Shown here: positions 1,295 through 45,067 of the stretch, one piece after another
Position numbering within the stretch: position 1 is the stretch's first letter
Layout: each line of letters starts with the position of its first letter
From: an uncultured Rhodospirillaceae bacterium
Lineage (GTDB): Bacteria; Pseudomonadota; Alphaproteobacteria; UBA7887
DNA length: 64,000 nt
NCBI GenBank assembly: GCA_964408735.1
Contig: CAYPAX010000002.1
Location: 10,921-74,920 of the forward strand
Direction of reading: 5' to 3'
Program-made: the position numbers and the translations under genes
Notes under the pieces: generated by a model
Databases searched by the model: none
Told to the model about the DNA's origin: nothing
Seen by the model: the letters and a program-made list of their open reading frames with translations, nothing else

Positions 1295-1996
1295 TCAGCT
1301 CGCCACGGCTGTCGTGCGGGGTAGGTCGAGGGCATCGAGGATGCCGTCGACCACCACGCCGACCACCATGGCGATACGTTCCGGGGTGTACTCGTCCCAG
1401 CCGAGATTGCGCAGGATCACCGGCCGGTTGCGGTGAAAGATCAGGCACTCGCCGATCAGCGCATTGGTCAGGATGATGGTTTCGGCATCACCGGGGCTGC
1501 GCCGGCTGGTGGCGGCTACCAGGCTGCCGAAGCTTTGATTGAGCGGCTTGAAGATGCCTTCGTAGAGGGTGTCGAAGGCGGCGGTCGGGTGGTCGATTTC
1601 GCGCATGATCAGATGCCGGGTCCAATTCTGCGGACCCATGCCGAGCAGGCCGCCGAGGACGGCGCGCACGAAGGCGGCGGCGGCATGGGCAAGCGCTTCC
1701 CTGTCGTCGCCGGCGCCCGCAAGGCTGTCGCGTAGGCTTTCCTCGGCGCCGCCGACCAAGGTCTGGACGCTGGTTACAGTGTGTTCGATGGTGGCCCGGT
1801 AGAGCCCTTCCTTGCCGCCGAAGTAGTAGCCGATGGCGGAAAGATTGACGCCGGCAGCCTTGCTCAGTTCGCGCGTCGAAACGGCGTCGAGCCCGGAATC
1901 GGAGAACAGAATGCCACCGACGTGCAACAGGCGCTCGCGCGAGCTCGAGGGATCCTCGCAGAGGCTCTCGATCAGCTCCTGTGTCAGCTCGCCCAT
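1295..1996 (-). CDS. TetR/AcrR family transcriptional regulator
   Basis: 233 aa. N-terminal HTH reads LLHVGGILFSDSGLDAVSTRELSKAAGVNLSAIGYYFGGKEGLY, which is typical of TetR. It is divergent from the NMO-family gene. Confidence 0.8.
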   Translation of the reverse strand: MGELTQELIESLCEDPSSSRERLLHVGGILFSDSGLDAVSTRELSKAAGVNLSAIGYYFGGKEGLYRATIEHTVTSVQTLVGGAEESLRDSLAGAGDDREALAHAAAAFVRAVLGGLLGMGPQNWTRHLIMREIDHPTAAFDTLYEGIFKPLNQSFGSLVAATSRRSPGDAETIILTNALIGECLIFHRNRPVILRNLGWDEYTPERIAMVVGVVVDGILDALDLPRTTAVAS

Positions 1997-2036
1997 GGCT
2001 TTGCCGGTCCCGTCCGTGGCAGCGCATCATTCTAAC

Positions 2037-2050
2037 GGGGAATTTCCCGC
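2037..2050. promoter_or_regulatory. Short palindrome (cGGGGAAtTTCCCg) in the TetR/NMO divergent intergenic region; candidate TetR operator
   Basis: Seen directly in the sequence: GGGAA-T-TTCCC inverted repeat 41 bp upstream of the TetR start. No functional evidence. Confidence 0.2.
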
Positions 2051-2152
2051 GGGTCAGGGGCTGGTTTTTTCAAACCGATGCGCCATATACCCGCCTGACA
2101 GGATGGCGCCGCGCGGGCGCCTTCTCCACATTCGGCCGCGGTAAGGAATCCA

Positions 2153-3550
2153 TTGAAAGCGCTCAATCCCATTCTGCTCTCGGGCAAGGAAGTTCTGCCG
2201 CTTGTCGAGGGCGGAAAAGGTGTGGCCATCAGCAATGGCGCAAGCTCGGGTGCCTGGGCGGCCGCCGGCGGCGTCGGCACCTTTTCCGGCGTCAATGCGG
2301 ACAGCACCGACGAGGACGGCAATCTCATCCCGGTGGTATTTCATGGCCGTACCCGCAAGGCCCGCCACGAGGAACTGGTGGCCAACGGCATTCGCGGCGG
2401 CATCGAACAGGCCCACACAGCACACGAGATCTCCAACGGCCATGGCCGCCTGCATGTCAACGTCTTGTGGGAGATGGGTGGCTCGGAGCGGGTGCTGGAA
2501 GGTATCCTCGAGGGCACCAAGGGCTTAGTCCACGGCGTTACCTGTGGCGCCGGCATGCCCTACCGCATTGCCGAGATCGCCGCGCGGCACGGCATCTACT
2601 ACTATCCCATCATCTCCTCCGCGCGTGCCTTCCGGGCCTTGTGGAAGCGTGCCTATCACAAATACGGCGAAGGCCTCGGCGGCGTGGTCTACGAGGACCC
2701 CTGGCTGGCTGGCGGCCATAACGGGCTGTCGAACAGCGAAGATCCGCTCGCGCCCCAGGACCCCTATCCGCGGGTCCGCGCCTTGCGCGAGATCATGCGC
2801 GATTTCGGTCTCGACAGCACGCCCATCTTCATGGCCGGCGGGGTCTGGTATCTGCGTGATTGGGAAGACTGGATCGACAATCCGGAGCTCGGTCCGATCG
2901 CCTTCCAGTTCGGCTCCAGGCCGCTGCTGACCGTCGAGAGCCCCATCTCGCTGCAGTGGAAGGAGCACCTGCGCAGCCTCGAGCCGGGCTCCGTGACCCT
3001 CAATCACTTCAGTCCGACGGGCTTTTGGTCGTCAGCCGTCAGCAATGACTTCCTGCACGAATTGGCGAAGCGCTCCGAGCGCCAGGTCGCCTACACCACC
3101 GAGCCCCTCGGCGAGCACAATACCGAATTCGCCATCGGGCCGCGCAAGCGGGCGCTCTATCTGACCGAGCCCGATAGCCTCAATGCCAAGGCCTGGGTGG
3201 CCGAGGGCTTCAGCGAAGCCTTGCGCACCCCAGACAGCACCTTGATTTTCACCACGCCCGAGAAGGCTGCCGAGATTCGCACCGATCAGGTGGATTGCAT
3301 GGGTTGTCTCAGCGCCTGCAATTTCAGCAACTGGTCGCAGAACGGCCGCAACTCGACCGGCCGCAAAGCCGATCCCCGCAGCTTTTGCATCCAGAAGTCG
3401 CTGCAGTCGATCGCTCATGGCGGCGATGTCGAGAACGAACTGATGTTCGCCGGCCATGGCGCCTATCGTTTCGCGGTCGATCCCTTCTATTCCAACGGTT
3501 TCACGCCGACGGTCGGGGAACTGGTCGAGCGCATTGTCACGGGCGATTGA
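2153..3550 (+). CDS. Nitronate monooxygenase (NMO, 2-nitropropane dioxygenase-like) family flavin oxidoreductase
   Basis: 465 aa. Contains GGKGVAISNG near the N-terminus and TIM-barrel NMO-like motifs (GVTCGAGMPYRIAEIA, IFMAGGV). The start is probably TTG at 2153, preceded by AAGGAA. Confidence 0.65.
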   Translation: MKALNPILLSGKEVLPLVEGGKGVAISNGASSGAWAAAGGVGTFSGVNADSTDEDGNLIPVVFHGRTRKARHEELVANGIRGGIEQAHTAHEISNGHGRLHVNVLWEMGGSERVLEGILEGTKGLVHGVTCGAGMPYRIAEIAARHGIYYYPIISSARAFRALWKRAYHKYGEGLGGVVYEDPWLAGGHNGLSNSEDPLAPQDPYPRVRALREIMRDFGLDSTPIFMAGGVWYLRDWEDWIDNPELGPIAFQFGSRPLLTVESPISLQWKEHLRSLEPGSVTLNHFSPTGFWSSAVSNDFLHELAKRSERQVAYTTEPLGEHNTEFAIGPRKRALYLTEPDSLNAKAWVAEGFSEALRTPDSTLIFTTPEKAAEIRTDQVDCMGCLSACNFSNWSQNGRNSTGRKADPRSFCIQKSLQSIAHGGDVENELMFAGHGAYRFAVDPFYSNGFTPTVGELVERIVTGD

Positions 3551-3628
3551 CGGCGACGATTGAAGTTTTCCCCCTGGCGGCCTACTTTGAAAGAAAGCGG
3601 CCCCAAGCAACGAGCGCGGAAGGCACCG

Positions 3629-4069
3629 ATGATGGATATGGCTCACGCAGCGACCCTTTTGCGGTCGGTAGGATTGCGCCCGACGCGGCAGCGCCAGGCC
3701 TTGACGCAGCTGATGCTTGCCAGTGGGCACCGGCATTTCAATGCCGAGCAGCTGCATGACGATGCGCGCCGAGCTGGCGTCGGTGTGTCCCTTGCCACCA
3801 TCTACAACACGCTGCATCAGTTCACGGATGCCGGCCTGCTGCGCGAGTTGGTCGTCGACTCGGGGCGCTCCTACTTCGATACCAATACCAGCGAACATCA
3901 CCATTTCTATGACGAGGATGACGGCTCGCTGAGCGACATTCCGGCCGAAGCGGTGGTCGTCAATGCCATTCCCGCCGCCGGTCAAGGCCGGGAAATCAGT
4001 CGCGTCGATGTAGTGGTGCGGGTGCGCTCGTGCGGGCCTGCGGCAGCTGCCGATACCAGCAAAGATTAG
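3629..4069 (+). CDS. Fur family transcriptional regulator, PerR/Irr-like
   Basis: The Fur-family helix reads RPTRQRQALTQLMLASGHRHFNAEQLHDDARRAGVGVSLATIYNTLHQFTDAGLL, followed by an HHHFY metal-site region. The start was moved to the ATG at 3629 (GGAAGG RBS); the track ORF begins at 3560. The gene sits directly upstream of rubrerythrin. Confidence 0.75.
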   Translation: MMDMAHAATLLRSVGLRPTRQRQALTQLMLASGHRHFNAEQLHDDARRAGVGVSLATIYNTLHQFTDAGLLRELVVDSGRSYFDTNTSEHHHFYDEDDGSLSDIPAEAVVVNAIPAAGQGREISRVDVVVRVRSCGPAAAADTSKD

Positions 4070-4080
4070 AATAGTTCTAA
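4066..4080. promoter_or_regulatory. Per/Fur-box-like 7-1-7 inverted repeat TTAGAAT-A-GTTCTAA
   Basis: Seen in the sequence. The arms TTAGAA/TTCTAA are perfect and resemble the PerR box TTATAAT-N-ATTATAA. It overlaps the Fur-family stop codon and lies immediately 5' of a TTGACA -35 for rubrerythrin. Confidence 0.35.
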
Positions 4081-4084
4081 TTGG

Positions 4085-4113
4085 TTGACACGATAGGCGG
4101 TGCGGCGCATAAC
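4085..4113 (+). promoter_or_regulatory. Candidate sigma70-type promoter for rubrerythrin (TTGACA - 17 nt - CATAAC)
   Basis: Seen in the sequence: -35 TTGACA at 4085-4090 and a -10-like CATAAC at 4108-4113, 62 nt upstream of the rubrerythrin ATG. Confidence 0.3.
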
Positions 4114-4174
4114 CCTGCCGCCGGTGTGGCAAGGTTTTGCACCGGTGCATCATCCATCTGCCGAGGAGGACACA

Positions 4175-4591
4175 ATGTCGCTTGCCGGGACCAAGACCGA
4201 AGACAATCTGAAAGCCGCGTTTGCCGGCGAATCCCAGGCCAATCGCCGCTATCTCTATTTCGCCCAGAAGGCCGACGTCGAAGGCTATAACGATGTCGCC
4301 ACCGTGTTCCGTTCGACCGCCGAGGGTGAGACGGGCCACGCGCTTGGCCATCTCGAATTCCTTGCCGAGACCGGCGATCCGGCCACCGGCAAGCCGATCG
4401 GCAGCACCGCCAACAACCTCGAGGCGGCAGTGGCCGGCGAGACCCACGAATACACGGATATGTATCCGGGCATGTCCAGCACCGCGCGTGAGGAAGGCTT
4501 CGACGAGATCGCCGACTGGTTCGATACCCTGGCCAAGGCCGAGAAGTCCCACGCCGGGCGTTTCCAGCGCGCGCTCGACACCCTCGACTGA
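4175..4591 (+). CDS. Rubrerythrin family protein (ferritin-like diiron domain; no C-terminal rubredoxin domain)
   Basis: Shows [37 protein letters not shown] and ExxH repeats (AVAGETHEY). The start was moved to the ATG at 4175 with a GAGGAGGA RBS; the track ORF starts at 4100. Confidence 0.85.
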
Positions 4592-4614
4592 GCCTAGGAG
4601 CAGACCCGGCAATC

Positions 4615-5952
4615 ATGGAAGGCGGCCTGAAGGCGCCCGTGCGCCATCCGATCGACTACGCTGATCCCGCCTTCCACGATCCGCAAGCGATCGACGCGGA
4701 GCTGCGTCGCGTCTTCGACATCTGCCATGGCTGCCGGCGCTGCTTCAACCTCTGCGACAGCTTCCCCAGGCTGTTCGACCTCGTTGACAAGTCGGACACG
4801 GGCGAGCTCGACAGCGTGGACTCGGCGGACTTCAAGCCGGTCATCGATGCCTGCACGCTCTGCGACATGTGCTTCATGGTGACCTGCCCCTACGTGCCGC
4901 CGCACGAGTTCAACCTGGACTTTCCCCATCTCGTCCTGCGAGCCCGCTCGGCCGATCTCGCGGCGGGCAAGCTCGGCTGGGCGGACAAGGCGCTTGCCAA
5001 GACCGACCGCAACGGCAAGCTCGCCCGCCCCGTGGCACCCGTCGCCAACTGGGCCAGCGATCGCCGCAACCGCCTGACCCGACCCGTCATGCAGGCCGTC
5101 GCCGGTATCCATCAGGATGCCTCCTTGCCGCGCTATCAAAGCAAGACCTTCACCATGCGTGCCAAGCAGGCGCCGACCGTTAATACGGATGCGCCGGCCG
5201 CGGGCCGCAGGGTGGCGATCTTCGCGACCTGCTTCGTAAACTACAACAGCCCCGAGATCGGCGAGGCCGCGCGCGCCGTCCTCGCCCATAACGGCGTCGA
5301 GACCGAGGTCGCCTATCCCGGCTGCTGCGGCATGCCGCAGCTCGAGCAGGGCGATTTCGCCGCCGTCGCGGAGAAGGCCAGGAAGACCGCAGCCGTGCTC
5401 TGCGACTGGATCGATAAGGGCCACGACATCGTTGCCCCGGTGCCGAGCTGCGCGCTGATGCTCAAGTTCGAGTGGCCCCTGATTTTGCCTGACGACCCGG
5501 CAATAAAGCGCGTCGCCGCGCACACCGCCGATATCACCGAATATGTCGCCGATATTGCCGAGAAAGAGGGCCTGGCCGATGGCCTCAAGCCTCTCGACGG
5601 CGGCATCGCGGTGCATCTCGCCTGCCACGCCCGGGCGCAGAACATGGGGCCCAAGGCGGTGGAGATGCTCAAGCTCATCCCCGAGGCCGACCTCGAGGTC
5701 ATCGAGCGCTGCTCGGGCCATGGCGGCGCCTGGGGCGTGAAGAAGGACTTCTTCGAGGTGGCGCTCAAGGTGGGCAAGCCGGCGGCGCGCAAGGCGGCCA
5801 AGTCGGCCAAGGCCCATCTGGTGTCCGAATGTCCTTTGGCCGGTGAGCATCTGCGCCAGGGCATCGAGGCGATGGGTGACGGGGCCCTGGCCGAAAACCC
5901 GGCCCGCCACCCCATAGAGCTGTTCGCCCGCGCCTACGGTCTGGTGTCATGA
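4615..5952 (+). CDS. CCG-domain (Fe-S)-binding oxidoreductase, GlpC/HdrD/LutA-like
   Basis: 445 aa. Ferredoxin-type CxxCxxCxxxCP motifs (CHGCRRCFNLCDSFP; CTLCDMCFMVTCP) and two cysteine-rich CCG-like regions (CCGMP..., PSCALM, CSGHGGAWG). Confidence 0.75.
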   Translation: MEGGLKAPVRHPIDYADPAFHDPQAIDAELRRVFDICHGCRRCFNLCDSFPRLFDLVDKSDTGELDSVDSADFKPVIDACTLCDMCFMVTCPYVPPHEFNLDFPHLVLRARSADLAAGKLGWADKALAKTDRNGKLARPVAPVANWASDRRNRLTRPVMQAVAGIHQDASLPRYQSKTFTMRAKQAPTVNTDAPAAGRRVAIFATCFVNYNSPEIGEAARAVLAHNGVETEVAYPGCCGMPQLEQGDFAAVAEKARKTAAVLCDWIDKGHDIVAPVPSCALMLKFEWPLILPDDPAIKRVAAHTADITEYVADIAEKEGLADGLKPLDGGIAVHLACHARAQNMGPKAVEMLKLIPEADLEVIERCSGHGGAWGVKKDFFEVALKVGKPAARKAAKSAKAHLVSECPLAGEHLRQGIEAMGDGALAENPARHPIELFARAYGLVS

Positions 5953-6536
5953 GCAAGCGCACGATCACCCGCGCCGACATTTTGGCAATGGACGTCTATG
6001 CCGCCGAGCGCAAAGAGCGCCGCGCGAAGACCTCGATCCTCAAGGAGCAGCGCCGCCTCGCCGTCGGACCCTTCGCCACCTTTCATTTCGAATGCTATGA
6101 GACCATGTGGATGCAGATCCACGAGATGCTCTATATCGAGAAGGGCGGCGAGGCGCAGATCGCCGACGAGCTGGCGGCCTACAACCCGCTGATCCCCGAC
6201 GGCCGCGAGCTGGTGGCGACCCTGATGTTCGGCATCCCCGAGGCAGAGCGCCGCGCCCGTATTCTGGCTACCCTCGGCGGCGTCGAAGACCGCATCGCCA
6301 TCGAGATAGACGGCGATCCGGTCGCGGCGTTGCCCGAAGGCGATGTCGAGCGCTCGCGAGAGGACGGCAAGACCTCCGCCGTGCACTTCCTGCATTTCCC
6401 CTTCACGGAAGCCCAGATCGCCGCCTTTCGCGATCCGGAGAGCCGCATCACGCTGTCGGTATCCCACCCCAATTACGGCCACATCGCCGTCTTCCCCCCT
6501 GCCTTGCACGAGGCGCTCGCCGCCGACTTCGATTGA
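5949..6536 (+). CDS. DUF3501 family protein
   Basis: 195 aa with a 4-bp overlap onto the upstream Fe-S gene. The DUF3501 call is from memory of the family's length and genomic context (commonly next to rubrerythrin plus a CCG Fe-S protein), not from an alignment. Confidence 0.55.
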   Translation: MSKRTITRADILAMDVYAAERKERRAKTSILKEQRRLAVGPFATFHFECYETMWMQIHEMLYIEKGGEAQIADELAAYNPLIPDGRELVATLMFGIPEAERRARILATLGGVEDRIAIEIDGDPVAALPEGDVERSREDGKTSAVHFLHFPFTEAQIAAFRDPESRITLSVSHPNYGHIAVFPPALHEALAADFD

Positions 6537-6575
6537 ACAGCTTCCTGAGCACGGCTAGCATGCATCCCCTAGGGG

Positions 6576-9500
6576 GTGCGCGCGGTGGCTGAGGACCAGA
6601 GCACGAGACGCTTGGCGGCGATACTGGCGGCGGATGTCGTCGGCTATACCCGCCTCATGCGCGATGACGAGCAGGCCACCATCGCCGCGCTCGAAGCCTG
6701 CCGCGCCATCTTCGCCGACGCCATCGCCACCCATGGCGGGCGTGTGGTGGACATGGCGGGCGATTCCGTGCTCGCTGTCTTCGAGACCGCCGGCGGCGCC
6801 GTCGAGGGCGCCCTTGCCATCCAGCAGCGGCTGGCGGCCCGCGAGGAGCCCGAAGGGCGCCGCATGCGCTACCGCATCGGCGTCAACTCCGGCGATATCG
6901 TCGAGAAGGCCGACGGCACCGTCTATGGCGACGGCGTCAACGTTGCCGCCCGCCTCGAAGGCCTGGCCGAGCCGGGCGCGGTCTGCGTCTCCGGCTCGGT
7001 CTACGATTCGGTCGAAGCCCATTTGGACGCCAGATTCGCCTATCTCGGCAAGCAGACGGTCAAGAACGTCGACAAGCCCGTGCGCGCCTACCGGGTCTTG
7101 GAGCCTGGTGCCGAAGCGCCCAAGGCGCCGCGCAGGCGCTATGCGATTATCGCCGCCGCGGCGGTGGTCCTCATCGCCGCCGGCCTCGGCGTGCGCTGGC
7201 TGACCTACGTGCCGCCATACTCGGACATGGTCACTGTCACCGGCGAATTTACCAACGACCCGGTGCTGGCAGCACCCACGGGCCCGGCCATCGCCGTGCT
7301 GCCGTTCGACGATCTCTCCGAGGACACCGGCCAGGGCTTCTTCGCCGACGGCCTCACCGAGGACATCATCACCGGGCTGTCGCGCTTCAGCAATCTGCGC
7401 GTCATCGCCCGCCACTCGACCTTCCAATACAAGGGCCAGGCAGTCGATGTGCGTGAGGTCGGCGAGGCGCTCGGCGTGCGCTACGTGCTCGAAGGCAGCG
7501 TGCGGCGGGCGGGCGAGTCCCTGCGCGTGACCGCCCAGCTTCTCGATGCCCGCGACGGCACGCACCTGTGGGCGGAGAACTACGCCCGCGATCTGAGCAC
7601 CGCCGACATCTTCGCCATCCAGGACAGCATCATGGAGCGCATCGTCGGCACGCTCGGCAGCAGCGTCGGCGTCATCAGCCGTGCCCTACTGGAGGAGAGC
7701 GCGGCCCGCTACACCGACAATCTTGCCGCCTATGACTGCGTGCTGCGCGCCTATGCCTATTACGACCTGGCGACCGCGGACGAGCACCTGGCGGTGCGCA
7801 CCTGCCTGGAAGAGGCGGTGGCGCAGGACCCCTCCTATGCCGAGGCTTGGGGCTGGCTCGCCGGCATGTATCAGGACGAATACAAGTTCGCCTTCAACCC
7901 ACGCGCGGAAGCGGACGATCCGCTGGCGAGAGCCATCGCGGCGTCGCGGAACGCCATCAACGCCGATGCGACCAGCCAGGTCGGTTACGAGACCCTGGCC
8001 GGCGGGCATTATTTTTCGGGCGATATCGAACAATTCCGCGCCGCCGCCGAGCGCGCTCTGTCGCTCAACCCCAACAACTCCAATACCCTCGCCTGGATGG
8101 GCTTTCTCACGGCCTATTCCGGCGCCTGGAACAGAGGCATCGCCCTGCTCGACAAGGCGGTCAACCTCAATCCCAATCATCCCAGCTGGTATCACGTTGC
8201 CTACGCCCTGCATCACTATCACAAGGGCAATTACGAGGCGGCGCTGTTGGCGGCCAAGCGCTACAACCTGCCGGGTTTCTACTGGCACCACCTGAATCTG
8301 TCGATGATCTACGCGCAGCTCGGCCGGCTCGACGAGGCACGGGCTGCGGTTGCCGAGCTTACCAAGCTCTATCCCGGTTACGCCGACGTCGCCCGTGCCG
8401 ACCTGGAGAAATGGTTCAAGGACGAAGCGCTGGTCACGGCCATGCTGGAGGGCCTGGAGAAGGCCGGGCTGTTCGACGAGCCCGAAGTCACGCGTCCGGC
8501 CATTGCCGTGCTGCCCTTTGCGAACCTTGGCGGCGACCCGGCCCAGGCCTATTTCGCCGACGGCATCACGGAAGAGCTGACCGAGGCGCTGGCGCGCTTC
8601 CAGGGGCTGTCTGTCACGGCGCGCACCCCGACGCTGCAATACAAGGAGACGACAGCGGACGTGCGCGAGATCGGCCAGGCGCTGGGCGTCGGTTATGTGT
8701 TGGAGGGCAGCGTGCGCCGCGACGCCGACACGGTCGGCATAACGGCGCAGCTCATCGACACAGCCGACGGCGCACATCTGTGGAGCGAGACCTACGAGCG
8801 CGACCTCATTGTCGGCGGCATTTTCGCGGTGCAGGAGGATATTGCGGATCGGGTGACGGTGGCGCTTACCGGTCGCCACGGGGTCCTTGTGGAACGAGAC
8901 TTGGCAGAAGCCCGTCAGTTGGCCCCGGAGAGCCTCGAGCACTATGACTGTGTTCTGTTGGCATCGGTCTATTGGGAGCACGCGGAACAGAAAACCTATC
9001 CGGCATTGCTGGATTGTCTCGAGCACGCGGTGGAATCGAATCCAGACTACGTAGACGCATGGATAGCCTTATCGGAGTTCTATGCCAACGACTACGAGCT
9101 TTCGATTGGCGCAAGGCCGGATCCTGCCTCACTAGCACTCGCCGCAGCGGAAAGGGCGGTCGAACTCGCGCCGAGACGTCACGACGCCCATGGGGTGAAA
9201 TCGAACGCGCTTTTCTTTTTGCACCAGCTCGATGCCTTTGAGAAGGCAGGCGATGTCGCGGTTGAGCTTAATCCGAGTGATCCCGAAATCCTGGTCCTGA
9301 CCGGGCTCCATTTGGTCCTGGTGGGCAAATGGGAGAAGGGTATCACCTTGGTGCATCGGGCGATGGAGCTTCAGCCCGATCATCCGACTTGGTGGTATTT
9401 CCCGACGATTTGGGAGCATTACCACAATGGTCGTTACGAGGCCGCGCTTGCTGACGCCCTCAAGATCGATCTCGAGGATTACCTGTGGACCCACACCGCG

Positions 9501-10922
9501 CGCGCGATCGCCTATGCGCGTCTCGGCCGCATGGCCGAAGCGCGGGCGGCGGCGGCGCGCGCAGCCGAGGTCTATCCCGGCTTCTCGATCGAGGCCCAGC
9601 GTGCCGAGCTGCAAAAATATAATTTCGAAGAGTCACTCATCGCCGACACTCTCGGCGCCCTCCGTCTCGCCGGGGTGCCGGAGACGCCGCCGGCGCCGGC
9701 GCGGCCGGTGATTGTCGTGCTGCCGTTCGACAATATGGGCGGCGATGGGAGCCAGGACTTTTTCGCCGACGGCATTACCGAGGATATCACCACGCGGCTG
9801 TCGCGCTTTGCTGACCTTGCCGTGATCGCGCGCAACTCGGCCTTCCAGTACAAGGGCCAGGCCGTGGATGTGGAGGCCGTGGCGGCCGAGCTTGGCGCCG
9901 ACTATGTGGTGGAGGGAAGCGTGCGGCGCTCGCAGGACCGCGTGCGCGTCACCGCCCAGCTCCTCGAAGCCGGCGCCGCCACCCACCTCTGGGCCGAGAC
10001 CTACGACCGCGACCTGACGGCCGGCGACGTCTTCGACATCCAGGACGAGATCACCGACTCCATCGTCGGCGTCATAGCCGGTGTCCACGGTGTGATTTCC
10101 CGCTCCGGTGCAGCCGATGCCCGTCGGCGCCCCGAAAGCCTCGACACCTATGACTGTTTGTTGCTCGCCTATGCTTATGACCGTCAAGTGACCGCCGAGG
10201 CGTTCCACGCCGGAAAACAGTGCCTCGACGCAGTGCTGGCGCGCGAGCCGGATTATGTCGATGCTCTGTCCGCATTTACCTATCTCGCGGCCGACGGCTC
10301 CACCATGGGCTGGGGTGGACTGACGGACGACGAGCGTGAGGCCCTATTGGCCGAGGCCCTTGCGACGGGCCACCGTGCCATCACCTTGGCACCGGATGAC
10401 GCCAAGAGCCAGTGGACTCTCGCTTATGCCAAATTCGTCGCCGGCGACGTGCCCGGCTTCCGGGCTCACGCCGAGCAGGCCATGACGCTCAACCGGAACG
10501 ATGCGGACGTTAAGGGCTATGCCGGATTGTTGCTGGCTTTCGCTGGCGACTACGATCGGGGCCTTGAGCTGCTCGAAGAAGCTTTCGCCCTCAACCCGCA
10601 TCATCCCCAATGGTGGCAATTTGGTGTGGCGACCGCGCATTGGGCCGATGGCCGCTACGAGGAAGCCCTGGCCGCCGTCCGCAAAGTGGATCAACCGGAC
10701 AGTTATTGGACGCACATATGGCGTGTCTTGGCTTTCACCGGCGTCGGCGACATGGACTCTGCTCGTGCGGCGGCCGCCGATCTGGAGCGCGTCTATCCCG
10801 GCTTTACCATCGCTGCCTATCGCGATGAGGTCGCCTATTGGCAGCTGAAGCCGGATCTTGTTGATAAGGCCATCGCCGCCCTACGCAAGGCCGGCCTGCC
10901 AGAGGGCGGCGACAGCGACTAG
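6576..10922 (+). CDS. Class III adenylate/guanylate cyclase with one TM segment and three tandem TolB-N-like plus TPR-like sensor modules (1448 aa)
   Basis: GTG start. The N-terminal CHD cyclase domain reads LAAILAADVVGYTRLM...GDSVLAVF...YGDGVNVAARLE. A hydrophobic segment follows (YAIIAAAAVVLIAAGLGV). Three ~404-aa modules then each begin P[AV]I[AV]VLPF.[DN]...FADG[IL]TE[DE][IL]T..L[SA]RF and end in TPR-like helices. Confidence 0.85.
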   Translation: MRAVAEDQSTRRLAAILAADVVGYTRLMRDDEQATIAALEACRAIFADAIATHGGRVVDMAGDSVLAVFETAGGAVEGALAIQQRLAAREEPEGRRMRYRIGVNSGDIVEKADGTVYGDGVNVAARLEGLAEPGAVCVSGSVYDSVEAHLDARFAYLGKQTVKNVDKPVRAYRVLEPGAEAPKAPRRRYAIIAAAAVVLIAAGLGVRWLTYVPPYSDMVTVTGEFTNDPVLAAPTGPAIAVLPFDDLSEDTGQGFFADGLTEDIITGLSRFSNLRVIARHSTFQYKGQAVDVREVGEALGVRYVLEGSVRRAGESLRVTAQLLDARDGTHLWAENYARDLSTADIFAIQDSIMERIVGTLGSSVGVISRALLEESAARYTDNLAAYDCVLRAYAYYDLATADEHLAVRTCLEEAVAQDPSYAEAWGWLAGMYQDEYKFAFNPRAEADDPLARAIAASRNAINADATSQVGYETLAGGHYFSGDIEQFRAAAERALSLNPNNSNTLAWMGFLTAYSGAWNRGIALLDKAVNLNPNHPSWYHVAYALHHYHKGNYEAALLAAKRYNLPGFYWHHLNLSMIYAQLGRLDEARAAVAELTKLYPGYADVARADLEKWFKDEALVTAMLEGLEKAGLFDEPEVTRPAIAVLPFANLGGDPAQAYFADGITEELTEALARFQGLSVTARTPTLQYKETTADVREIGQALGVGYVLEGSVRRDADTVGITAQLIDTADGAHLWSETYERDLIVGGIFAVQEDIADRVTVALTGRHGVLVERDLAEARQLAPESLEHYDCVLLASVYWEHAEQKTYPALLDCLEHAVESNPDYVDAWIALSEFYANDYELSIGARPDPASLALAAAERAVELAPRRHDAHGVKSNALFFLHQLDAFEKAGDVAVELNPSDPEILVLTGLHLVLVGKWEKGITLVHRAMELQPDHPTWWYFPTIWEHYHNGRYEAALADALKIDLEDYLWTHTARAIAYARLGRMAEARAAAARAAEVYPGFSIEAQRAELQKYNFEESLIADTLGALRLAGVPETPPAPARPVIVVLPFDNMGGDGSQDFFADGITEDITTRLSRFADLAVIARNSAFQYKGQAVDVEAVAAELGADYVVEGSVRRSQDRVRVTAQLLEAGAATHLWAETYDRDLTAGDVFDIQDEITDSIVGVIAGVHGVISRSGAADARRRPESLDTYDCLLLAYAYDRQVTAEAFHAGKQCLDAVLAREPDYVDALSAFTYLAADGSTMGWGGLTDDEREALLAEALATGHRAITLAPDDAKSQWTLAYAKFVAGDVPGFRAHAEQAMTLNRNDADVKGYAGLLLAFAGDYDRGLELLEEAFALNPHHPQWWQFGVATAHWADGRYEEALAAVRKVDQPDSYWTHIWRVLAFTGVGDMDSARAAAADLERVYPGFTIAAYRDEVAYWQLKPDLVDKAIAALRKAGLPEGGDSD
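7284..10919 (+). repeat. Intragenic tandem triplication: three ~1.21-kb modules (7284-8495, 8496-9704, 9705-10919) encoding residues 237-640, 641-1043 and 1044-1448
   Basis: Module boundaries were placed by hand at the recurring PAIAVLPF/PVIVVLPF motif. The modules are of equal length. Similarity is recognisable at DNA level and strong at protein level. Confidence 0.7.
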
Positions 10923-22687: not shown

Positions 22688-24079
22688 TTGGCGGTCGTGG
22701 CAGAGACACAAAACAGGCTGGAAGCCGACGAGAGCTGGCGGCGCGTGCGCGACCGTTTGCGCGGCGAGCTGGGCAGCACCACCTTCGAGCGTTGGATGGA
22801 ATCGGTCGAGCTGGGAAGCGTCACGGGCGGGCGGGTTCAGCTTTGCGTGCCGACGCGTTTTCTGCGTGATTGGGTGGCGCCGCGCTATGGCGACCGGCTG
22901 CGCGCCTTGTGGCAGGACGAGAGCAAGAACGTGGCGGCCGTCGATATCGTGGTGCGCCCGGGCCTGCCGACTCCGGTCGACCCACCGCGCCCGAGCGGGC
23001 TTGCGACCGAGGCCGAGACGGCCGGCGAAGATCCCTTCGGCGATATCGATTCGATCGGGGCGGCGCTCGATTCGCGCTACTGCTTCGACAATTTCGTGGT
23101 CGGCAAGCCCAACGAGTTCGCCCACGCCGCGGCAAAGCGGGTCGGCGAATCGGACGACGTGCCTTTCAATCCGTTGTTCATCTATGGCGGCGTCGGCCTC
23201 GGCAAGACCCATCTGATGCACGCCATCGGCCTGCAGGTGCGAGAGCGCCGCCCCGACAAGCGAGTGATCTACCTCTCGGCCGAGAAGTTCATGTACCAGT
23301 TCATCCGCGCCCTGCGGTTCAAGAACATCATGGGCTTCAAGGAGCTGTTCCGCTCGGTCGACGTGCTGCTGATCGACGACGTGCAGTTCATCGGCGGCAA
23401 GGAATCGACCCAGGAAGAGTTCTTCCACACCTTCAATGCGCTGGTCGACCAGAACAAGCAGGTGATCGTGTCCGGCGACCGCTCGCCGGCGGATCTCGAA
23501 TATATGGACGAGCGCATGCGCTCGCGCCTCAGCTGGGGCCTGGTGGCGGAGGTGCATCAAACGTCCTACGAGTTGCGCCTCGGCATCCTGCAGGGCAAGG
23601 CCGACCAGCTCGGCGCCGGCCAGGTGCCGCCCAAGGTGCTGGAGTTCCTCGCCCACAAGATCAGCTCGAATGTGCGCGAGCTGGAGGGCGCGCTGATTCG
23701 CGTCGTCGCCCATTCCACCCTGGTGGGGCGCCCCATCACCCTGGAGAGCACCCAGGAGGTCCTGCACGACCTGCTGCGTGCCAACGACCGCAGGGTGACC
23801 ATCGAGGACATCCAGAAGCGGGTCGCCGAGTACTACAACATCAAGGTCTCGGAGATGAGCTCGGCGCGGCGGGCGCAGATGGTGGCCCGGCCGCGCCAGG
23901 TCGCGATGTATCTGGCCAAGCAGCTGACCCAGCGCTCGCTGCCGGAGATCGGCCGCAAGTTCGGCAATCGCGACCACACAACGGTGATGCACGCGGTGCG
24001 CAAGGTCGATCAGCTGCGCCAAAGCGATGCCGGCTTCGCCGAAGACGTGGAGCTGCTCAGGCGCATGCTCGAGGCCTGA
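22688..24079 (+). CDS. dnaA: Chromosomal replication initiator protein DnaA
   Basis: AAA+ Walker A (GGVGLGKTHL), Walker B (LLIDDVQF), sensor motifs and the C-terminal DNA-binding domain. The start is TTG at 22688 or GTG at 22697 and is uncertain. Confidence 0.95.
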   Translation: MAVVAETQNRLEADESWRRVRDRLRGELGSTTFERWMESVELGSVTGGRVQLCVPTRFLRDWVAPRYGDRLRALWQDESKNVAAVDIVVRPGLPTPVDPPRPSGLATEAETAGEDPFGDIDSIGAALDSRYCFDNFVVGKPNEFAHAAAKRVGESDDVPFNPLFIYGGVGLGKTHLMHAIGLQVRERRPDKRVIYLSAEKFMYQFIRALRFKNIMGFKELFRSVDVLLIDDVQFIGGKESTQEEFFHTFNALVDQNKQVIVSGDRSPADLEYMDERMRSRLSWGLVAEVHQTSYELRLGILQGKADQLGAGQVPPKVLEFLAHKISSNVRELEGALIRVVAHSTLVGRPITLESTQEVLHDLLRANDRRVTIEDIQKRVAEYYNIKVSEMSSARRAQMVARPRQVAMYLAKQLTQRSLPEIGRKFGNRDHTTVMHAVRKVDQLRQSDAGFAEDVELLRRMLEA

Positions 24080-24225
24080 GCGGCCGCTGCCCGAAAGGGC
24101 GAAAAAACTATAGAAAACACACGAGTCTGGTATAGTTCCGGACCCGGGGGCGACGGCGCCGCCGGCGGCTCGACGGGCGGCTGGCGCCTGTCGGCTGGCA
24201 GCTTTCAACGAGGGTTTCCGGCGAC

Positions 24226-25337
24226 ATGAAACTGACCATCGAGCGCTCGCATCTGCTCAAGTCGCTGCAGCACGTGCAAAGCGTGGTCGAGCGCCGCAAT
24301 ACCATTCCGATTTTGTCCAATCTGCTGATTTCGTCAAACGGCGGCAAGCTCAGCCTGACGGCCACCGACATGGATATCGAGGTGATCGACGCGACACCGT
24401 CGGAGGTCGGCCAGGAGGGCACGGCGACGGCGCCGGCGCATATGCTCTACGACATCGTGCGCAAGCTGCCCGAGGGCGCCCAGGTGGAGCTGGCCAGCGA
24501 AGAAGGCAGCGAGCGCCTGGCGCTCCGCAGCGGCGGCTCGGCGTTCTCTCTGCATTGCCTGCCGCCGGTGGACTTTCCCGCCTTCTCGGCCGGCGATCTC
24601 GATCACAGCTTCGCCATTCCGGCAGCCGATCTCAGACGGCTGATCGACAAGACCCGATTCGCGATCTCGACCGAGGAGACGCGCTACTACCTCAACGGCA
24701 TTCACCTGCACGCGGTCGAAGAGGGCGAGCGGGCCCTGCGTGCGGTGGCCACCGACGGCCATCGTTTGGCGCGGGTCGAGGTGGACCTGCCGGCCGGCGC
24801 CGAGGGCATGCCGGGCATCATCGTGCCGCGCAAGGCGGTCACCGAGCTGCGCAAGCTGCTCGACGATGCCGAGGACGAGGTCGCGGTGGCGCTGTCGGAC
24901 GTCAAGGTTCGCTTCACCATCGACGGTGCGGTGCTGTCGTCCAAGCTGATCGACGGCACCTTCCCCGACTATCAGCGCGTGATCCCGGAAGGCAACGACA
25001 AGGTGATGAGCGTGCACGGCCCGAGCTTTGCCGAAGCCGTGGACCGGGTCTCGACCATCGCCAGCGACAAGTCGCGGGCCATCAAGCTGGCGATCGAGAC
25101 GGGTAAGCTGGTGCTTTCCGCCAACAGTCCCGACCAGGCCAGCGCCACTGAGGAGCTGGTGGTGGACTATGATGGCGAATCGCTGTCGATCGGCTTCAAC
25201 TCCCGTTACGTGCTTGAAATGACGCAACAGGTCGAGGGCGACACCTTGCGCTTTTCCATGGCCGATTCCGCCTCGCCGACGGTGGTTGGCGACAGCGAGG
25301 ATGCGCGCGCGCTCTATGTGTTGATGCCGATGCGCGT

Positions 25338-25341
<4 letters not shown>
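24226..25341 (+). CDS. dnaN: DNA polymerase III beta sliding clamp
   Basis: 371 aa with the typical N-terminus MKLTIERSHLLKSLQHVQSVVERRNTIPILSNLL. Confidence 0.95.
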
Positions 25342-43054: not shown

Positions 43055-43351
43055 ATGTATGCCGTCTTGATCCTGTTCGGCGAGCCGGTGGACCCCGCCG
43101 CCTTCGCGCGTCATGTCGAGGAAACCCATCGGCCCTTGCTCGACGGGCTCCCCGGTGCCGAGGCCGTCGGGCTGAAATGGGTCGCCGGGAGGCTTGCCGG
43201 CGAGCTGGCCCTCCACCTCGTGATCGAAATCGGCTTTGCCACCGAAGCGGCGTTGCAGGATAGCCTGAACTCGCCGGCCGGACAGGCCATGGCGCGGGAC
43301 TACCCCAATTTCGCTTCCGGCGGCGTGACCATACTGGCCTCAGTCGGGTAG
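43055..43351 (+). CDS. EthD-like small protein (98 aa)
   Basis: EthD/Dabb-like size and hydrophobic pattern. This is a weak call. Confidence 0.4.
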   Translation: MYAVLILFGEPVDPAAFARHVEETHRPLLDGLPGAEAVGLKWVAGRLAGELALHLVIEIGFATEAALQDSLNSPAGQAMARDYPNFASGGVTILASVG

Positions 43352-45067
43352 GCCGGCGGCGCTGAACCCTTCGTCAAACCGTGCCGCCATGGCAGTATCG
43401 TGGATATGCATCGGCCGCATGGTGCTGCGGCTCAGCGCCGGCTCGCCGGCCAGCAGCTCCTGCACGCATTTCTGCGCTACCTCCTGCTGCCCGGCATGCC
43501 AAAGGATCGGCACAGAGATGAGGTGGTTTCGCAACAGATCCGGGGCCTGGCGCACCAGCTTGCTGACCACCTGGGCAGCCCGCTCCGGCTCACCGACGAT
43601 GAAATGGGCCAGCGCCAGCTCGCGCTGATGGCGGAAGCGGTGGGGGTCCTCCGGCGCCGCCTGGATGCCGTTTTGCAGCAGCTGCAAGCCCTCGTCCTGC
43701 TCACCCAGATGGAACTTGGCGATGCCTGTCATGGCCGTCGCCTGGGAGAAGCTCGAATTAAGCTCGAGCGAGGTTTCCGCATGCACCAGGGCGGCATCGA
43801 AATCGCCGCGCAAATCCTGATGGATCATGGCCGCGATGAGATGGGCGAAGAAGCTCGACGGATCGACGGACAATGCCGCCTTGATGCCGGAAGACAGCTC
43901 CTCCCTCACATCCGCCGGCATGTCGAGCACGGAGAACTCGAACATGCGATAGCGGCAAAAGATCATCATCGCCATGGCCATGGCATTATCGGGCTTGCGC
44001 GTCAGCGCCGCCTTGAGGGTTTCCGCCGCCTCGTCGTTATGGCTGTACGAACTGACGAAATAGCCAGCCGCCTTCGACAGCAATTGCGGCACCGAGAGCG
44101 CATCGTTGACCGTGTTGCGAAGCTTCTCGAAGGCCTTGGCCTTGATGCGGATGCGCACGGCCGCTGCGACGCTCATGGAGATCTCGTCCTCGAGATCGAA
44201 GACATCGTCGAGGTTGCGGTCGTAGCGGTCGGACCAGACCTGACTGCCGCCCACCCCCTCGGCAAGCGTGAACGACAGCCTGAGCCTGTCGCCGGCCGCG
44301 CGAACGCTGCCTTCGAGGCGGAAATCCGCGCCCTCGGCCACCTCGCCAGCATGCTCGCCAATTACTGCAATCGCCGTCTGCTTGGTCAGGCCGCCGACGA
44401 TGTCCTGTTGCAGGCCCTCGGCCAGGGAGGCGATCTCGTCGCCGCCGCTGATGACCTTGACGGGCGCCACGGCGACGGTGGGCAGCTCCTCGCCATCCTT
44501 CCTGGTCGGCTCACGATTGGTCCGCTTGCCCTCCCCCTCGACACCGAACTGATAGACCGCCACGGGATCTGCGATATTCTTCAGCTCCTGCTCGCCCATG
44601 AAGGCGAACGGTCCGCCGACCTTGGCGCGCACACTGTCGAATACCGTGCCAGAGACGTTGATGCCGCCGGGGCTTGCCATGGCTTGCAGGCGCGCCGCCA
44701 CATTGACCCCGTCGCCGTAGATCGAGCCGTCTTCCTTCTCCAGGATATCGCCGAGATTGAGGCCGACCCGGAACAGCATCTTGCGGTCGTCGGGCAAGGG
44801 CTCGTTGCGCTTGGCAAGCTCCCCTTGCGCCTCGGTGGCCGACGTCACGGCGCTGATGGCGCTTTCGAAAATCGCCAGCACCGAATCGCCCGCCATATCG
44901 ACGATGCGCCCGTTATGGGCCTCGATACACTTGCGGAAGATGCCGCGAAACTCGTCGAGGGTGGCGACCGTGGCGCGGTCGTCCTCGCGCATCAGGCGCG
45001 AATAGCCGACAGCGTCGGCCGCCAATATGGCAGCCAGACGTTCCTTCGGCTCCTTGGTCTCGGTCAT
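43340..45067 (-). CDS. Class III adenylate/guanylate cyclase, soluble, with a degenerate TolB-N-like module and TPR-like C-terminus (575 aa)
   Basis: The CHD cyclase domain reads LAAILAADAVGYSRLM...GDSVLAIF...YGDGVNVAARLQ. No TM segment is present. The internal stretch VAVAPVKVISGGDEI...LEGSVRAAGDRLRLSFTL is a degenerate copy of the module seen in the other two cyclases. Confidence 0.8.
   Translation of the reverse strand: MTETKEPKERLAAILAADAVGYSRLMREDDRATVATLDEFRGIFRKCIEAHNGRIVDMAGDSVLAIFESAISAVTSATEAQGELAKRNEPLPDDRKMLFRVGLNLGDILEKEDGSIYGDGVNVAARLQAMASPGGINVSGTVFDSVRAKVGGPFAFMGEQELKNIADPVAVYQFGVEGEGKRTNREPTRKDGEELPTVAVAPVKVISGGDEIASLAEGLQQDIVGGLTKQTAIAVIGEHAGEVAEGADFRLEGSVRAAGDRLRLSFTLAEGVGGSQVWSDRYDRNLDDVFDLEDEISMSVAAAVRIRIKAKAFEKLRNTVNDALSVPQLLSKAAGYFVSSYSHNDEAAETLKAALTRKPDNAMAMAMMIFCRYRMFEFSVLDMPADVREELSSGIKAALSVDPSSFFAHLIAAMIHQDLRGDFDAALVHAETSLELNSSFSQATAMTGIAKFHLGEQDEGLQLLQNGIQAAPEDPHRFRHQRELALAHFIVGEPERAAQVVSKLVRQAPDLLRNHLISVPILWHAGQQEVAQKCVQELLAGEPALSRSTMRPMHIHDTAMAARFDEGFSAAGLPD

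Follow-up and report, generated by a model that had tools for sequence, protein, structure and literature searches.

Four co-directional open reading frames lie on the + strand of the window, the whole 64 kb stretch of DNA that was analysed, and encode a Fur-family regulator, a rubrerythrin, an Fe-S protein with CCG domains and a DUF3501 protein. They follow one another in the order irr, rbr, rfo and DUF3501 gene with gene-to-gene spacings of 105, 23 and -4 bp. An earlier note on this DNA had described the same layout and the same four gene identities; ORF calling returned the genes and spacings at identical positions, and Pfam agrees on what they encode. We take the + strand as the real reading because the third-position GC of the four genes (0.72, 0.80, 0.87 and 0.85, respectively) is above that of the long antisense ORFs (0.63 and 0.68). 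No RNA family was found in an Rfam scan of positions 1900-7000.

The rbr gene (4175..4591, +) starts at ATG 4175, preceded by a GAGGAGG ribosome-binding site within an ORF that is open from 4100, and encodes a protein of 138 aa. Its only Pfam domain is Rubrerythrin (1.8e-29), it contains zero cysteines and, as had been read from the sequence before, it has no rubredoxin domain. The E/ExxH motifs of the di-iron four-helix bundle (GES, EGETGH, GETHE and AEKSH) are invariant in 65 orthologues, and together with the co-localised genes for RFO and DUF3501 they place the protein among the aerobic-type rubrerythrins. Matches to known structures include the Burkholderia pseudomallei rubrerythrins 9onm/4di0 (E 4e-66) and sulerythrin 1j30 (E 9e-53). 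Sulerythrin (Sulfolobus tokodaii) and ferriperoxin (Hydrogenobacter thermophilus) are rubredoxin-less di-iron four-helix bundles of the same lineage, and peroxidase activity has been shown for both homologues; ferriperoxin acts as a peroxidase in an NADPH/FNR-dependent manner, and aerobic growth requires it (PMC3317640). In vitro it is driven by NADPH plus ferredoxin:NADP reductase, whereas no gene for such a reductase adjoins the operon described here.

The product of rfo (4615..5952, +; Pfam CCG 9e-13 plus Fer4_17) contains two cubane-type [4Fe-4S] motifs, C37xxC40xxC43xxxC47 and C80xxC83xxC86xxxxC91P, followed by a complete CCG domain (C206...C237C238G...C279) and a second, degenerate one (C337...C366-S-G-H...C406), in which a CSG sequence, three cysteines and four invariant histidines are found. 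All 15 cysteines of the protein are invariant in 68 orthologues. This composition, with the gene beside an aerobic-type rbr, is that of an RFO whose second CCG domain is degenerate. A sequence search against PDB chains gave nothing at E <= 0.01, and relatives were found by fold search only: the AlphaFold model (pLDDT 88), submitted to Foldseek, retrieved LutA, the soluble part of mycobacterial EtfD and HdrB as fold neighbours with E values of 1e-9 to 1e-5. RFO shares with HdrD/HdrB, GlpC, LutA and EtfD a ferredoxin-like domain with two [4Fe-4S] motifs and then two CCG domains, but differs from all of them in the CSG and invariant histidines of the second one. Neither a membrane nor a haem-b domain, as seen in EtfD and HdrE, is part of RFO, and in contrast to GlpC and LutA the protein is not accompanied by GlpAB or LutBC partners.

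[quoted passage not shown] Two GlpC models are indeed its best NCBIfam matches (E 2e-60 and 8e-37), but the scores of 204.8 and 127 bits fall below the curated cut-offs of 278 and 279.9, respectively. GlpA/GlpB-like proteins are absent among the 22 window proteins scanned with Pfam (mostly >=330 aa, out of ~47 ORFs), and rbr and the DUF3501 gene flank rfo in every related locus with room for them. Context and score together refute the GlpC assignment, which we regard as extremely implausible; the earlier description of an HdrD/GlpC-like protein that is not a canonical GlpC, with no GlpA/GlpB encoded nearby, is borne out within the set of proteins scanned.

The start of the DUF3501 gene (5949..6536, +; 195 aa) overlaps the end of rfo through an ATGA sequence, an arrangement that points to translational coupling. 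The protein matches the Pfam model (PF12007, 6e-56) and its one solved structure over the full length, and contains neither a conserved cysteine nor a recognisable cofactor site. Residues that are conserved in it include E48, E59, E64, E74, E95, E113, H173 and Y176. The family is large, with about 970 clusters at 50% identity (E <= 1e-10). Rubrerythrin-DUF3501 fusions were sought among the long DUF3501 representatives (260-320 aa), whose N-terminal extensions proved to be without any domain. One long representative resembles a chimera with alcohol dehydrogenase.

The trio as such is already known, and the locus is an ordinary copy of what Cardenas, Quatrini and Holmes named in 2016 the "aerobic-type rubrerythrin system", consisting of RBR, the Fe-S oxidoreductase RFO and DUF3501 (PMC5114695), from which we see no essential difference. 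Their co-occurrence analysis identified the triad in 185 of 4461 genomes, and they proposed that RFO stands in for the missing rubredoxin domain (PMC5114695). In the related loci examined here the gene order is conserved far beyond chance, with rbr directly upstream of rfo in 66/66 and rfo directly upstream of the DUF3501 gene in 67/67 loci with room; the co-conservation on which the earlier note had made its case depend is thus seen both here and in the published 185 genomes. The trio was also reported from protist mitochondria, including those of Andalucia godoyi, by Gray et al. 2020 (PMC7050145). The triad and its electron-donor hypothesis were restated in that year (PMC7050145) and in 2025 (PMC12154734), where a structural study links RFO and DUF3501 to rubrerythrin turnover only as a hypothesis (PMC12154734), and the literature we searched contained no experimental test of the biochemical role of either protein. 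In B. pseudomallei, the genes of the trio, bpss1837-1839 (hypothetical protein, ferredoxin and rubrerythrin), rise jointly under oxidative stress in a sigma-E dependent manner (PMC4175613).

The regulator gene lies in an ORF spanning 3560-4069 that is open from TTG 3560 (Pfam FUR 2e-20). Two observations make ATG 3629 the likely true start of irr: the alignment with the NCBIfam Irr model begins at ORF residue 27, and GGAAGG is found upstream. This start gives a gene at 3629..4069 (+) encoding 146 aa. The product scores 196.4 bits against a cut-off of 150 with the NCBIfam equivalog model NF045678 (IrrA) and 185 bits against 170 with NF045677 (Irr), and thus belongs to the Irr family. Its haem motif HHH (H90-H91-H92, in SEHHHFY) is kept at 100, 95 and 100%, respectively, in 44 Irr orthologues whose genes adjoin rbr. 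The HXH motif is the site of haem binding by Irr, which represses its targets under iron depletion and whose haem-dependent degradation is favoured by reactive oxygen species (PMC3413700).

This assignment replaces the PerR-like, peroxide-type regulator of the earlier note; with a sensor of that kind, H2O2 would derepress the cassette through metal-catalysed oxidation. In its favour, the protein is of the Fur family, the targets are peroxide-related, and partial, weak matches to PerR models do occur (E 1e-18 to 1e-13). The bit scores with four PerR models, however, are 67, 65.3, 48.6 and 34.1 against cut-offs of 250, 200, 180 and 200, respectively, while both Irr models are passed. PerR of B. 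subtilis has a structural Zn(Cys)4 site built from two CxxC pairs; no such site is present in the irr product, whose sole cysteine, C135, is kept in only 5% of orthologues. With an operator that is moreover a textbook Irr box, a PerR sensor is refuted as far as family membership goes and is, as an account of the locus, highly implausible. Its sequence makes the regulator Irr, a Fur paralogue that responds to iron/haem, rather than a PerR-type peroxide sensor. Unlike B. japonicum Irr, it lacks an N-terminal Cys-Pro haem regulatory motif. The same motif is missing from the Irr proteins of R. leguminosarum, Brucella and R. sphaeroides, and therefore marks a subtype rather than the family. Because of this lack, the Irr of this locus is more likely to be controlled through haem binding than through degradation.

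The Irr box (iron control element, ICE), TTAGAAtagTTCTAA, is a perfect palindrome at 4066..4080 that overlaps the irr stop codon and ends 4 nt before a TTGACA -35 element. With up to two mismatches allowed, the motif TTAGAA-N3-TTCTAA has this one match in the 64 kb window, compared with 0.1 expected. The candidate sigma-70 promoter of the rbr operon (4085..4113, +) consists of TTGACA at 4085-4090, a 17 nt spacer and CATAAC at 4108-4113. It was predicted by direct reading of the sequence and cross-locus conservation; a simple promoter scanner missed it, as its -10 element has no T at position 6.

The arrangement is a conserved one. Of 66 related loci from alphaproteobacteria, 51 have irr immediately before the rbr operon and 54 have an Irr box no more than 320 bp ahead of rbr; conversely, 55 of the 61 Irr-box matches across the 829 kb that these loci comprise sit within the 320 bp stretches. 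TTGAC begins 2-7 nt past the box in 43/54 loci (background 0.6%), and a CATA-like -10 then follows in 30 of the 43. Oceanibacterium hippocampi, Ferrovibrio and Azospirillum canadense are among the bacteria with this arrangement. The HHH-containing Irr orthologue and the TTAGAA-N3-TTCTAA operator are common features of the alphaproteobacterial Irr/ICE regulon (Bradyrhizobium, Rhizobium and Rhodobacter). For Rhodospirillum, Magnetospirillum and Pelagibacter, the Irr regulon predicted by Rodionov et al. 2006 is minimal and holds a rubrerythrin-like gene or ccpA (PMC1698941), and the rubrerythrin gene predicted as the target in Rhodospirillales is the target here as well. While irr and the Irr box precede the operon here and in related alphaproteobacteria, the Burkholderia locus that we examined is without irr: among ORFs called by us on four Burkholderia replicons from plasmid records, the trio was found with neither irr nor any informative neighbour nearby.

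We consider it probable, although well short of certain, that the locus encodes an Irr-controlled aerobic-type rubrerythrin system in which Irr represses, RFO passes electrons to rubrerythrin and DUF3501 acts as an adaptor. Irr, sensing iron via haem, would bind the box next to the predicted rbr -35 and, when iron or haem is scarce, block RNA polymerase at the promoter, since the footprint of a Fur-type dimer would reach into the -35 element. Available haem would inactivate Irr, the more so in the presence of reactive oxygen species, and rbr, rfo and the DUF3501 gene would then be transcribed as one unit. Such logic would be iron-sparing, given that a di-iron site and several Fe-S clusters have to be built into the three products, and it would also raise peroxide defence at times when Fenton chemistry driven by iron poses the greatest danger.

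The sign of this regulation may be the opposite, with Irr activating the rbr promoter and the operon switched on under iron or haem limitation. The box lies upstream of the -35 and not over the -10 or the start, a position that is used by activators too, and its centre, ~47 nt upstream of the predicted transcription start, is compatible with activation. In Pelagibacter, rbr mRNA is 1.57-fold higher under iron limitation, which is opposite to simple Irr repression, although the effect is small. Set against this are the cost of the trio in iron and the 2-7 nt gap to the -35, which would leave little room for RNA polymerase beside a Fur-type dimer, and we therefore think activation unlikely. The box abutting the -35 also differs from the location that the R. 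sphaeroides paper regards as fitting a repressor, namely at the transcription start, for which it cites B. japonicum bll6680 and blr7895. The latter is a classic Irr target, and we asked separately whether rbr is its homologue; this was rejected, as blr7895, which has good homology with the membrane-bound ferritin MbfA, is an MbfA-type gene outside the triad.

Under the repression reading that we prefer, the rubrerythrin di-iron site would reduce H2O2 or organic hydroperoxides, with electrons supplied by RFO from its HdrB/LutA-like CCG site via the two [4Fe-4S] clusters. The electron-delivery idea for RFO and DUF3501, already put forward in the earlier note, appears reasonable, and the predicted fold of RFO, like that of the electron-transfer modules LutA, EtfD and HdrB, is consistent with it. 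A counterpoint is that FNR by itself sufficed for ferriperoxin to work in vitro, with neither RFO nor DUF3501 present (PMC3317640). Because DUF3501 shows neither conserved cysteines nor a recognisable site for a cofactor, it is taken as an adaptor that would dock the rubrerythrin dimer to RFO. The DUF3501-RFO gene fusions in Nitrosomonas and the RBR-DUF3501 pairs without RFO in 25 genomes (PMC5114695) fit a DUF3501 protein that touches both partners. Alternatively, RFO and DUF3501 could mature or repair rubrerythrin, for example through metal loading or reduction of the di-iron site, or the trio could be a ferroxidase/iron-release system rather than a peroxidase; we judge these options quite unlikely.

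For the electron-delivery reading, the ultimate donor is most likely a quinol or a thiol, because the trio is without a flavin or NAD(P)H domain. Just upstream of irr lies a conserved gene (2153-3550) whose product, an FMN-barrel protein of 465 aa, contains an invariant CxxCxxxC...C motif and matched no model in Pfam and NCBIfam searches. That this flavoprotein feeds electrons from NAD(P)H into the rubrerythrin system, as the input that is otherwise missing, is a speculative proposal and a very doubtful one. If it were true, the alphaproteobacterial unit would comprise five genes, for the flavoprotein, Irr, Rbr, RFO and DUF3501. In a neighbour-joining tree of RFO, which is star-like, loci with the upstream flavoprotein gene are scattered across the tree.

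The trio is widespread in many aerobic bacteria, archaea and protist mitochondria, and no physiological reductase is known for its rubrerythrin. Working out what RFO and DUF3501 do would therefore fill a genuine gap in the understanding of aerobic peroxide defence. That question has been in print since 2016 and was not first raised by this window. The additions made here are modest: the regulator is corrected from PerR-like to Irr, and 66 loci confirm the tie of irr and of an Irr box abutting the -35 to the operon in Rhodospirillales-like alphaproteobacteria. This linkage fits the view that Irr started out locally, as the regulator of a very small set of genes.

The rubrerythrin locus comprises four co-directional genes on the forward strand, with intergenic distances of 105, 23, and -4 bp, as the earlier note had placed them. 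The first is a Fur-family ORF (irr, 3560-4069), for which ATG 3629 is the likely start, since alignment to the NCBIfam Irr model begins at ORF residue 27 and there is a GGAAGG upstream. It is followed by rbr (rubrerythrin, 4175-4591), with GAGGAGG preceding its ATG, rfo (the Fe-S/CCG protein RFO, 4615-5952), and the DUF3501 gene (5949-6536), which overlaps rfo in an ATGA. Pfam search assigned FUR, Rubrerythrin, CCG plus Fer4_17, and DUF3501 (6e-56), in agreement with the original calls of a rubrerythrin without a rubredoxin domain, a CCG protein, and a DUF3501 protein. Third-position GC is 0.72 to 0.87 in these genes vs 0.63 and 0.68 in the long antisense ORFs, marking the latter as artefacts of the kind common in high-GC DNA. 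The value for irr (0.72) lies below those of its neighbors (0.80-0.87), and the stretch around it (3-4.5 kb) has the lowest GC (0.61-0.62) within the first 9 kb of the window. An Rfam scan of the region matched no RNA family.

The regulator had been read as PerR-like, which turned out to be wrong. The protein passes the NCBIfam Irr equivalog models (IrrA, 196.4 vs a cut-off of 150; Irr, 185 vs 170), whereas all PerR models are far under cut-off (67 vs 250, 65 vs 200, and 49 vs 180), so that membership tests refute the PerR reading. An HHH motif at residues 90 to 92, kept across 44 orthologues, corresponds to the HXH haem-binding motif of Irr proteins (PMC3413700). The only cysteine is non-conserved, so the Cys4 zinc site of PerR is missing, as is the Cys-Pro haem regulatory motif that marks the B. 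japonicum Irr subtype. We are nearly certain that the regulator is Irr and that the three genes behind it are the aerobic-type rubrerythrin trio.

A perfect palindrome, TTAGAAtagTTCTAA, at 4066-4080 encloses the irr stop codon and is an Irr box (iron control element), the single match at up to 2 mismatches in the 64 kb window (expected 0.1). Four bases 3′ of it is TTGACA, then a 17-nt spacer and CATAAC, which lies 61 nt ahead of the rbr start codon. Scanning one genome per species gave 297 loci with a DUF3501 relative, of which the best 80 were kept; nearly all are from Rhodospirillales-like alphaproteobacteria, the closest being uncultured Rhodospirillaceae (91-95% identity). RFO is encoded immediately 5′ of DUF3501 in all 67 loci with room and Rbr immediately 5′ of RFO in 66 of 66, while irr is immediately 5′ of rbr on the same strand in 51/66. 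An Irr box (up to 2 mismatches) occurs within 320 bp 5′ of rbr in 54 of the 66 loci, 34 of them with at most one mismatch; these upstream stretches, only 2.6% of the 829 kb of DNA, hold 55 of its 61 Irr-box matches. TTGAC begins 2 to 7 nt past the box in 43 of the 54 (background 0.6%), and 30 of those 43 have a CATA-like -10 at the correct distance. The box is absent mostly where irr is non-adjacent (Phenylobacterium L039 and L043, Acetobacteraceae L025, Kordiimonas L080). These counts therefore define a conserved regulatory and structural module of irr, Irr box, -35/-10 elements, and rbr-rfo-DUF3501. In the Burkholderia loci examined the trio has no irr; in B. cenocepacia an ORF of 570 aa that matches nothing in Pfam (L081, 2205-3917, reverse strand) is divergent from rbr.

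Under low iron or haem, Irr would occupy its box, and because the footprint of a Fur-type dimer (about 21 bp or more) would overlap the -35 element, the promoter would be blocked. With haem available, especially under oxidative stress, Irr would be inactivated and the operon expressed. Alternatively, Irr might be an activator at this promoter, as suggested by the box lying upstream of the -35 element and by the 1.57-fold increase of Pelagibacter rbr in iron limitation. We consider repression of the rbr operon by Irr fairly probable.

Rbr has 138 aa, invariant E/ExxH motifs, and zero cysteines, and matches the B. pseudomallei Rbr structures (E 4e-66) and sulerythrin (E 9e-53). RFO contains 15 cysteines, invariant across 68 orthologues, arranged in two cubane motifs (CxxCxxCxxxC and CxxCxxCxxxxCP), one complete four-cysteine CCG domain, and a degenerate second one (C...CSGH...C) with three cysteines and four invariant histidines. 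Its AlphaFold model (pLDDT 88) is closest to LutA, the soluble part of mycobacterial EtfD, and HdrB, and RFO resembles an HdrD-type electron-transfer module that lacks a membrane partner. Many of its homologues carry the name "glycerol-3-phosphate dehydrogenase subunit C" in JGI and some NCBI records, a systematic misannotation given the rubrerythrin-operon setting and scores under both GlpC cut-offs; these membership tests refute a canonical GlpC identity. No GlpA/GlpB-like protein was found among the 22 window proteins scanned against Pfam (mostly those of at least 330 aa).

In the proposed scheme, Rbr would reduce peroxides with electrons supplied by RFO, passing from the CCG site through the two [4Fe-4S] clusters to Rbr, and DUF3501 would be an adaptor bridging RFO and Rbr. 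Its fusion to RFO in certain genomes and its pairing with Rbr alone in others fit a protein touching both partners. Thiol:fumarate reductase and similar CCG enzymes oxidise thiols. Since none of the three proteins contains an NAD(P)H or flavin domain, yet they work as a self-contained set in mitochondria, our best guess for the donor is a ubiquitous one such as quinol or thiol. RFO and DUF3501 might instead be maturation or iron-handling factors, and we give their role as the reductase module about an even chance.

Directly 5′ of irr, a forward-strand gene (2153-3550) encodes a 465-aa protein that matched no Pfam or NCBIfam model at E ≤0.01; its residues 5 to 312 resemble PDB chains 7e1q and 9lt5 (deposited as "2-nitropropane dioxygenase", E 4e-12), an FMN TIM barrel. 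A C-terminal motif (C382xxC385xxxC389...C412), kept in 19/20 orthologues, suggests an Fe-S cluster. Of 45 related loci, 16 carry this flavoprotein gene immediately 5′ of irr and another 2 have it there with a gene inserted; these loci are dispersed across the RFO tree. The flavoprotein gene has no Irr box ahead of it and is probably controlled by the divergent CecR-type TetR-family regulator (TetR_N plus CecR_C; 1295-1996, reverse strand), a pairing also seen in L001 and L014. On the 3′ side, a 1448-aa protein (6576-10922, forward) combines an N-terminal adenylate/guanylate cyclase domain with three TolB_N/FlgO-like repeats and TPR blocks; only L001 and L002, the two closest relatives, have its gene behind DUF3501, and a shorter cyclase-TPR paralogue (575 aa; 43340-45067, reverse) lies 37 kb away. 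The presence of dnaA and dnaN at 22688-25341 (forward) makes it probable that the region of the chromosomal replication origin falls in the window.

The definition of the aerobic-type rubrerythrin lineage and the name RFO come from Cardenas, Quatrini and Holmes (2016), who proposed that RFO makes up for the lost rubredoxin domain and reported all three genes together in 185 of 4461 finished genomes, RBR-DUF3501 pairs without RFO in 25, and DUF3501-RFO fusions in Nitrosomonas (PMC5114695). Andalucia and other protists also have the trio, there targeted to mitochondria (Gray et al. 2020, PMC7050145). In B. pseudomallei, bpss1837 (hypothetical), bpss1838 (ferredoxin), and bpss1839 (rubrerythrin), which by gene order and annotation we infer to be the trio, are co-induced by oxidative stress in a sigma-E-dependent manner (listed values 3.31-3.37; PMC4175613). 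A 2025 structural study of its Rbr restated the operon partners as electron donors, as a hypothesis only (PMC12154734). The rubredoxin-less homologue ferriperoxin acts as a peroxidase dependent on NADPH/FNR and is needed for aerobic growth (PMC3317640). Rodionov et al. (2006) predicted a minimal Irr regulon of only ccpA or a rubrerythrin-like gene in Rhodospirillum, Magnetospirillum, and Pelagibacter (PMC1698941). The co-occurrence analysis and H2O2 transcription test suggested by the earlier note have therefore already been done elsewhere, and its central idea of electron delivery to rubrerythrin from the CCG and DUF3501 proteins duplicates the literature. The locus is an already described system, real and well conserved, and its interest is confined to the biochemistry of the trio and its tight linkage to irr.
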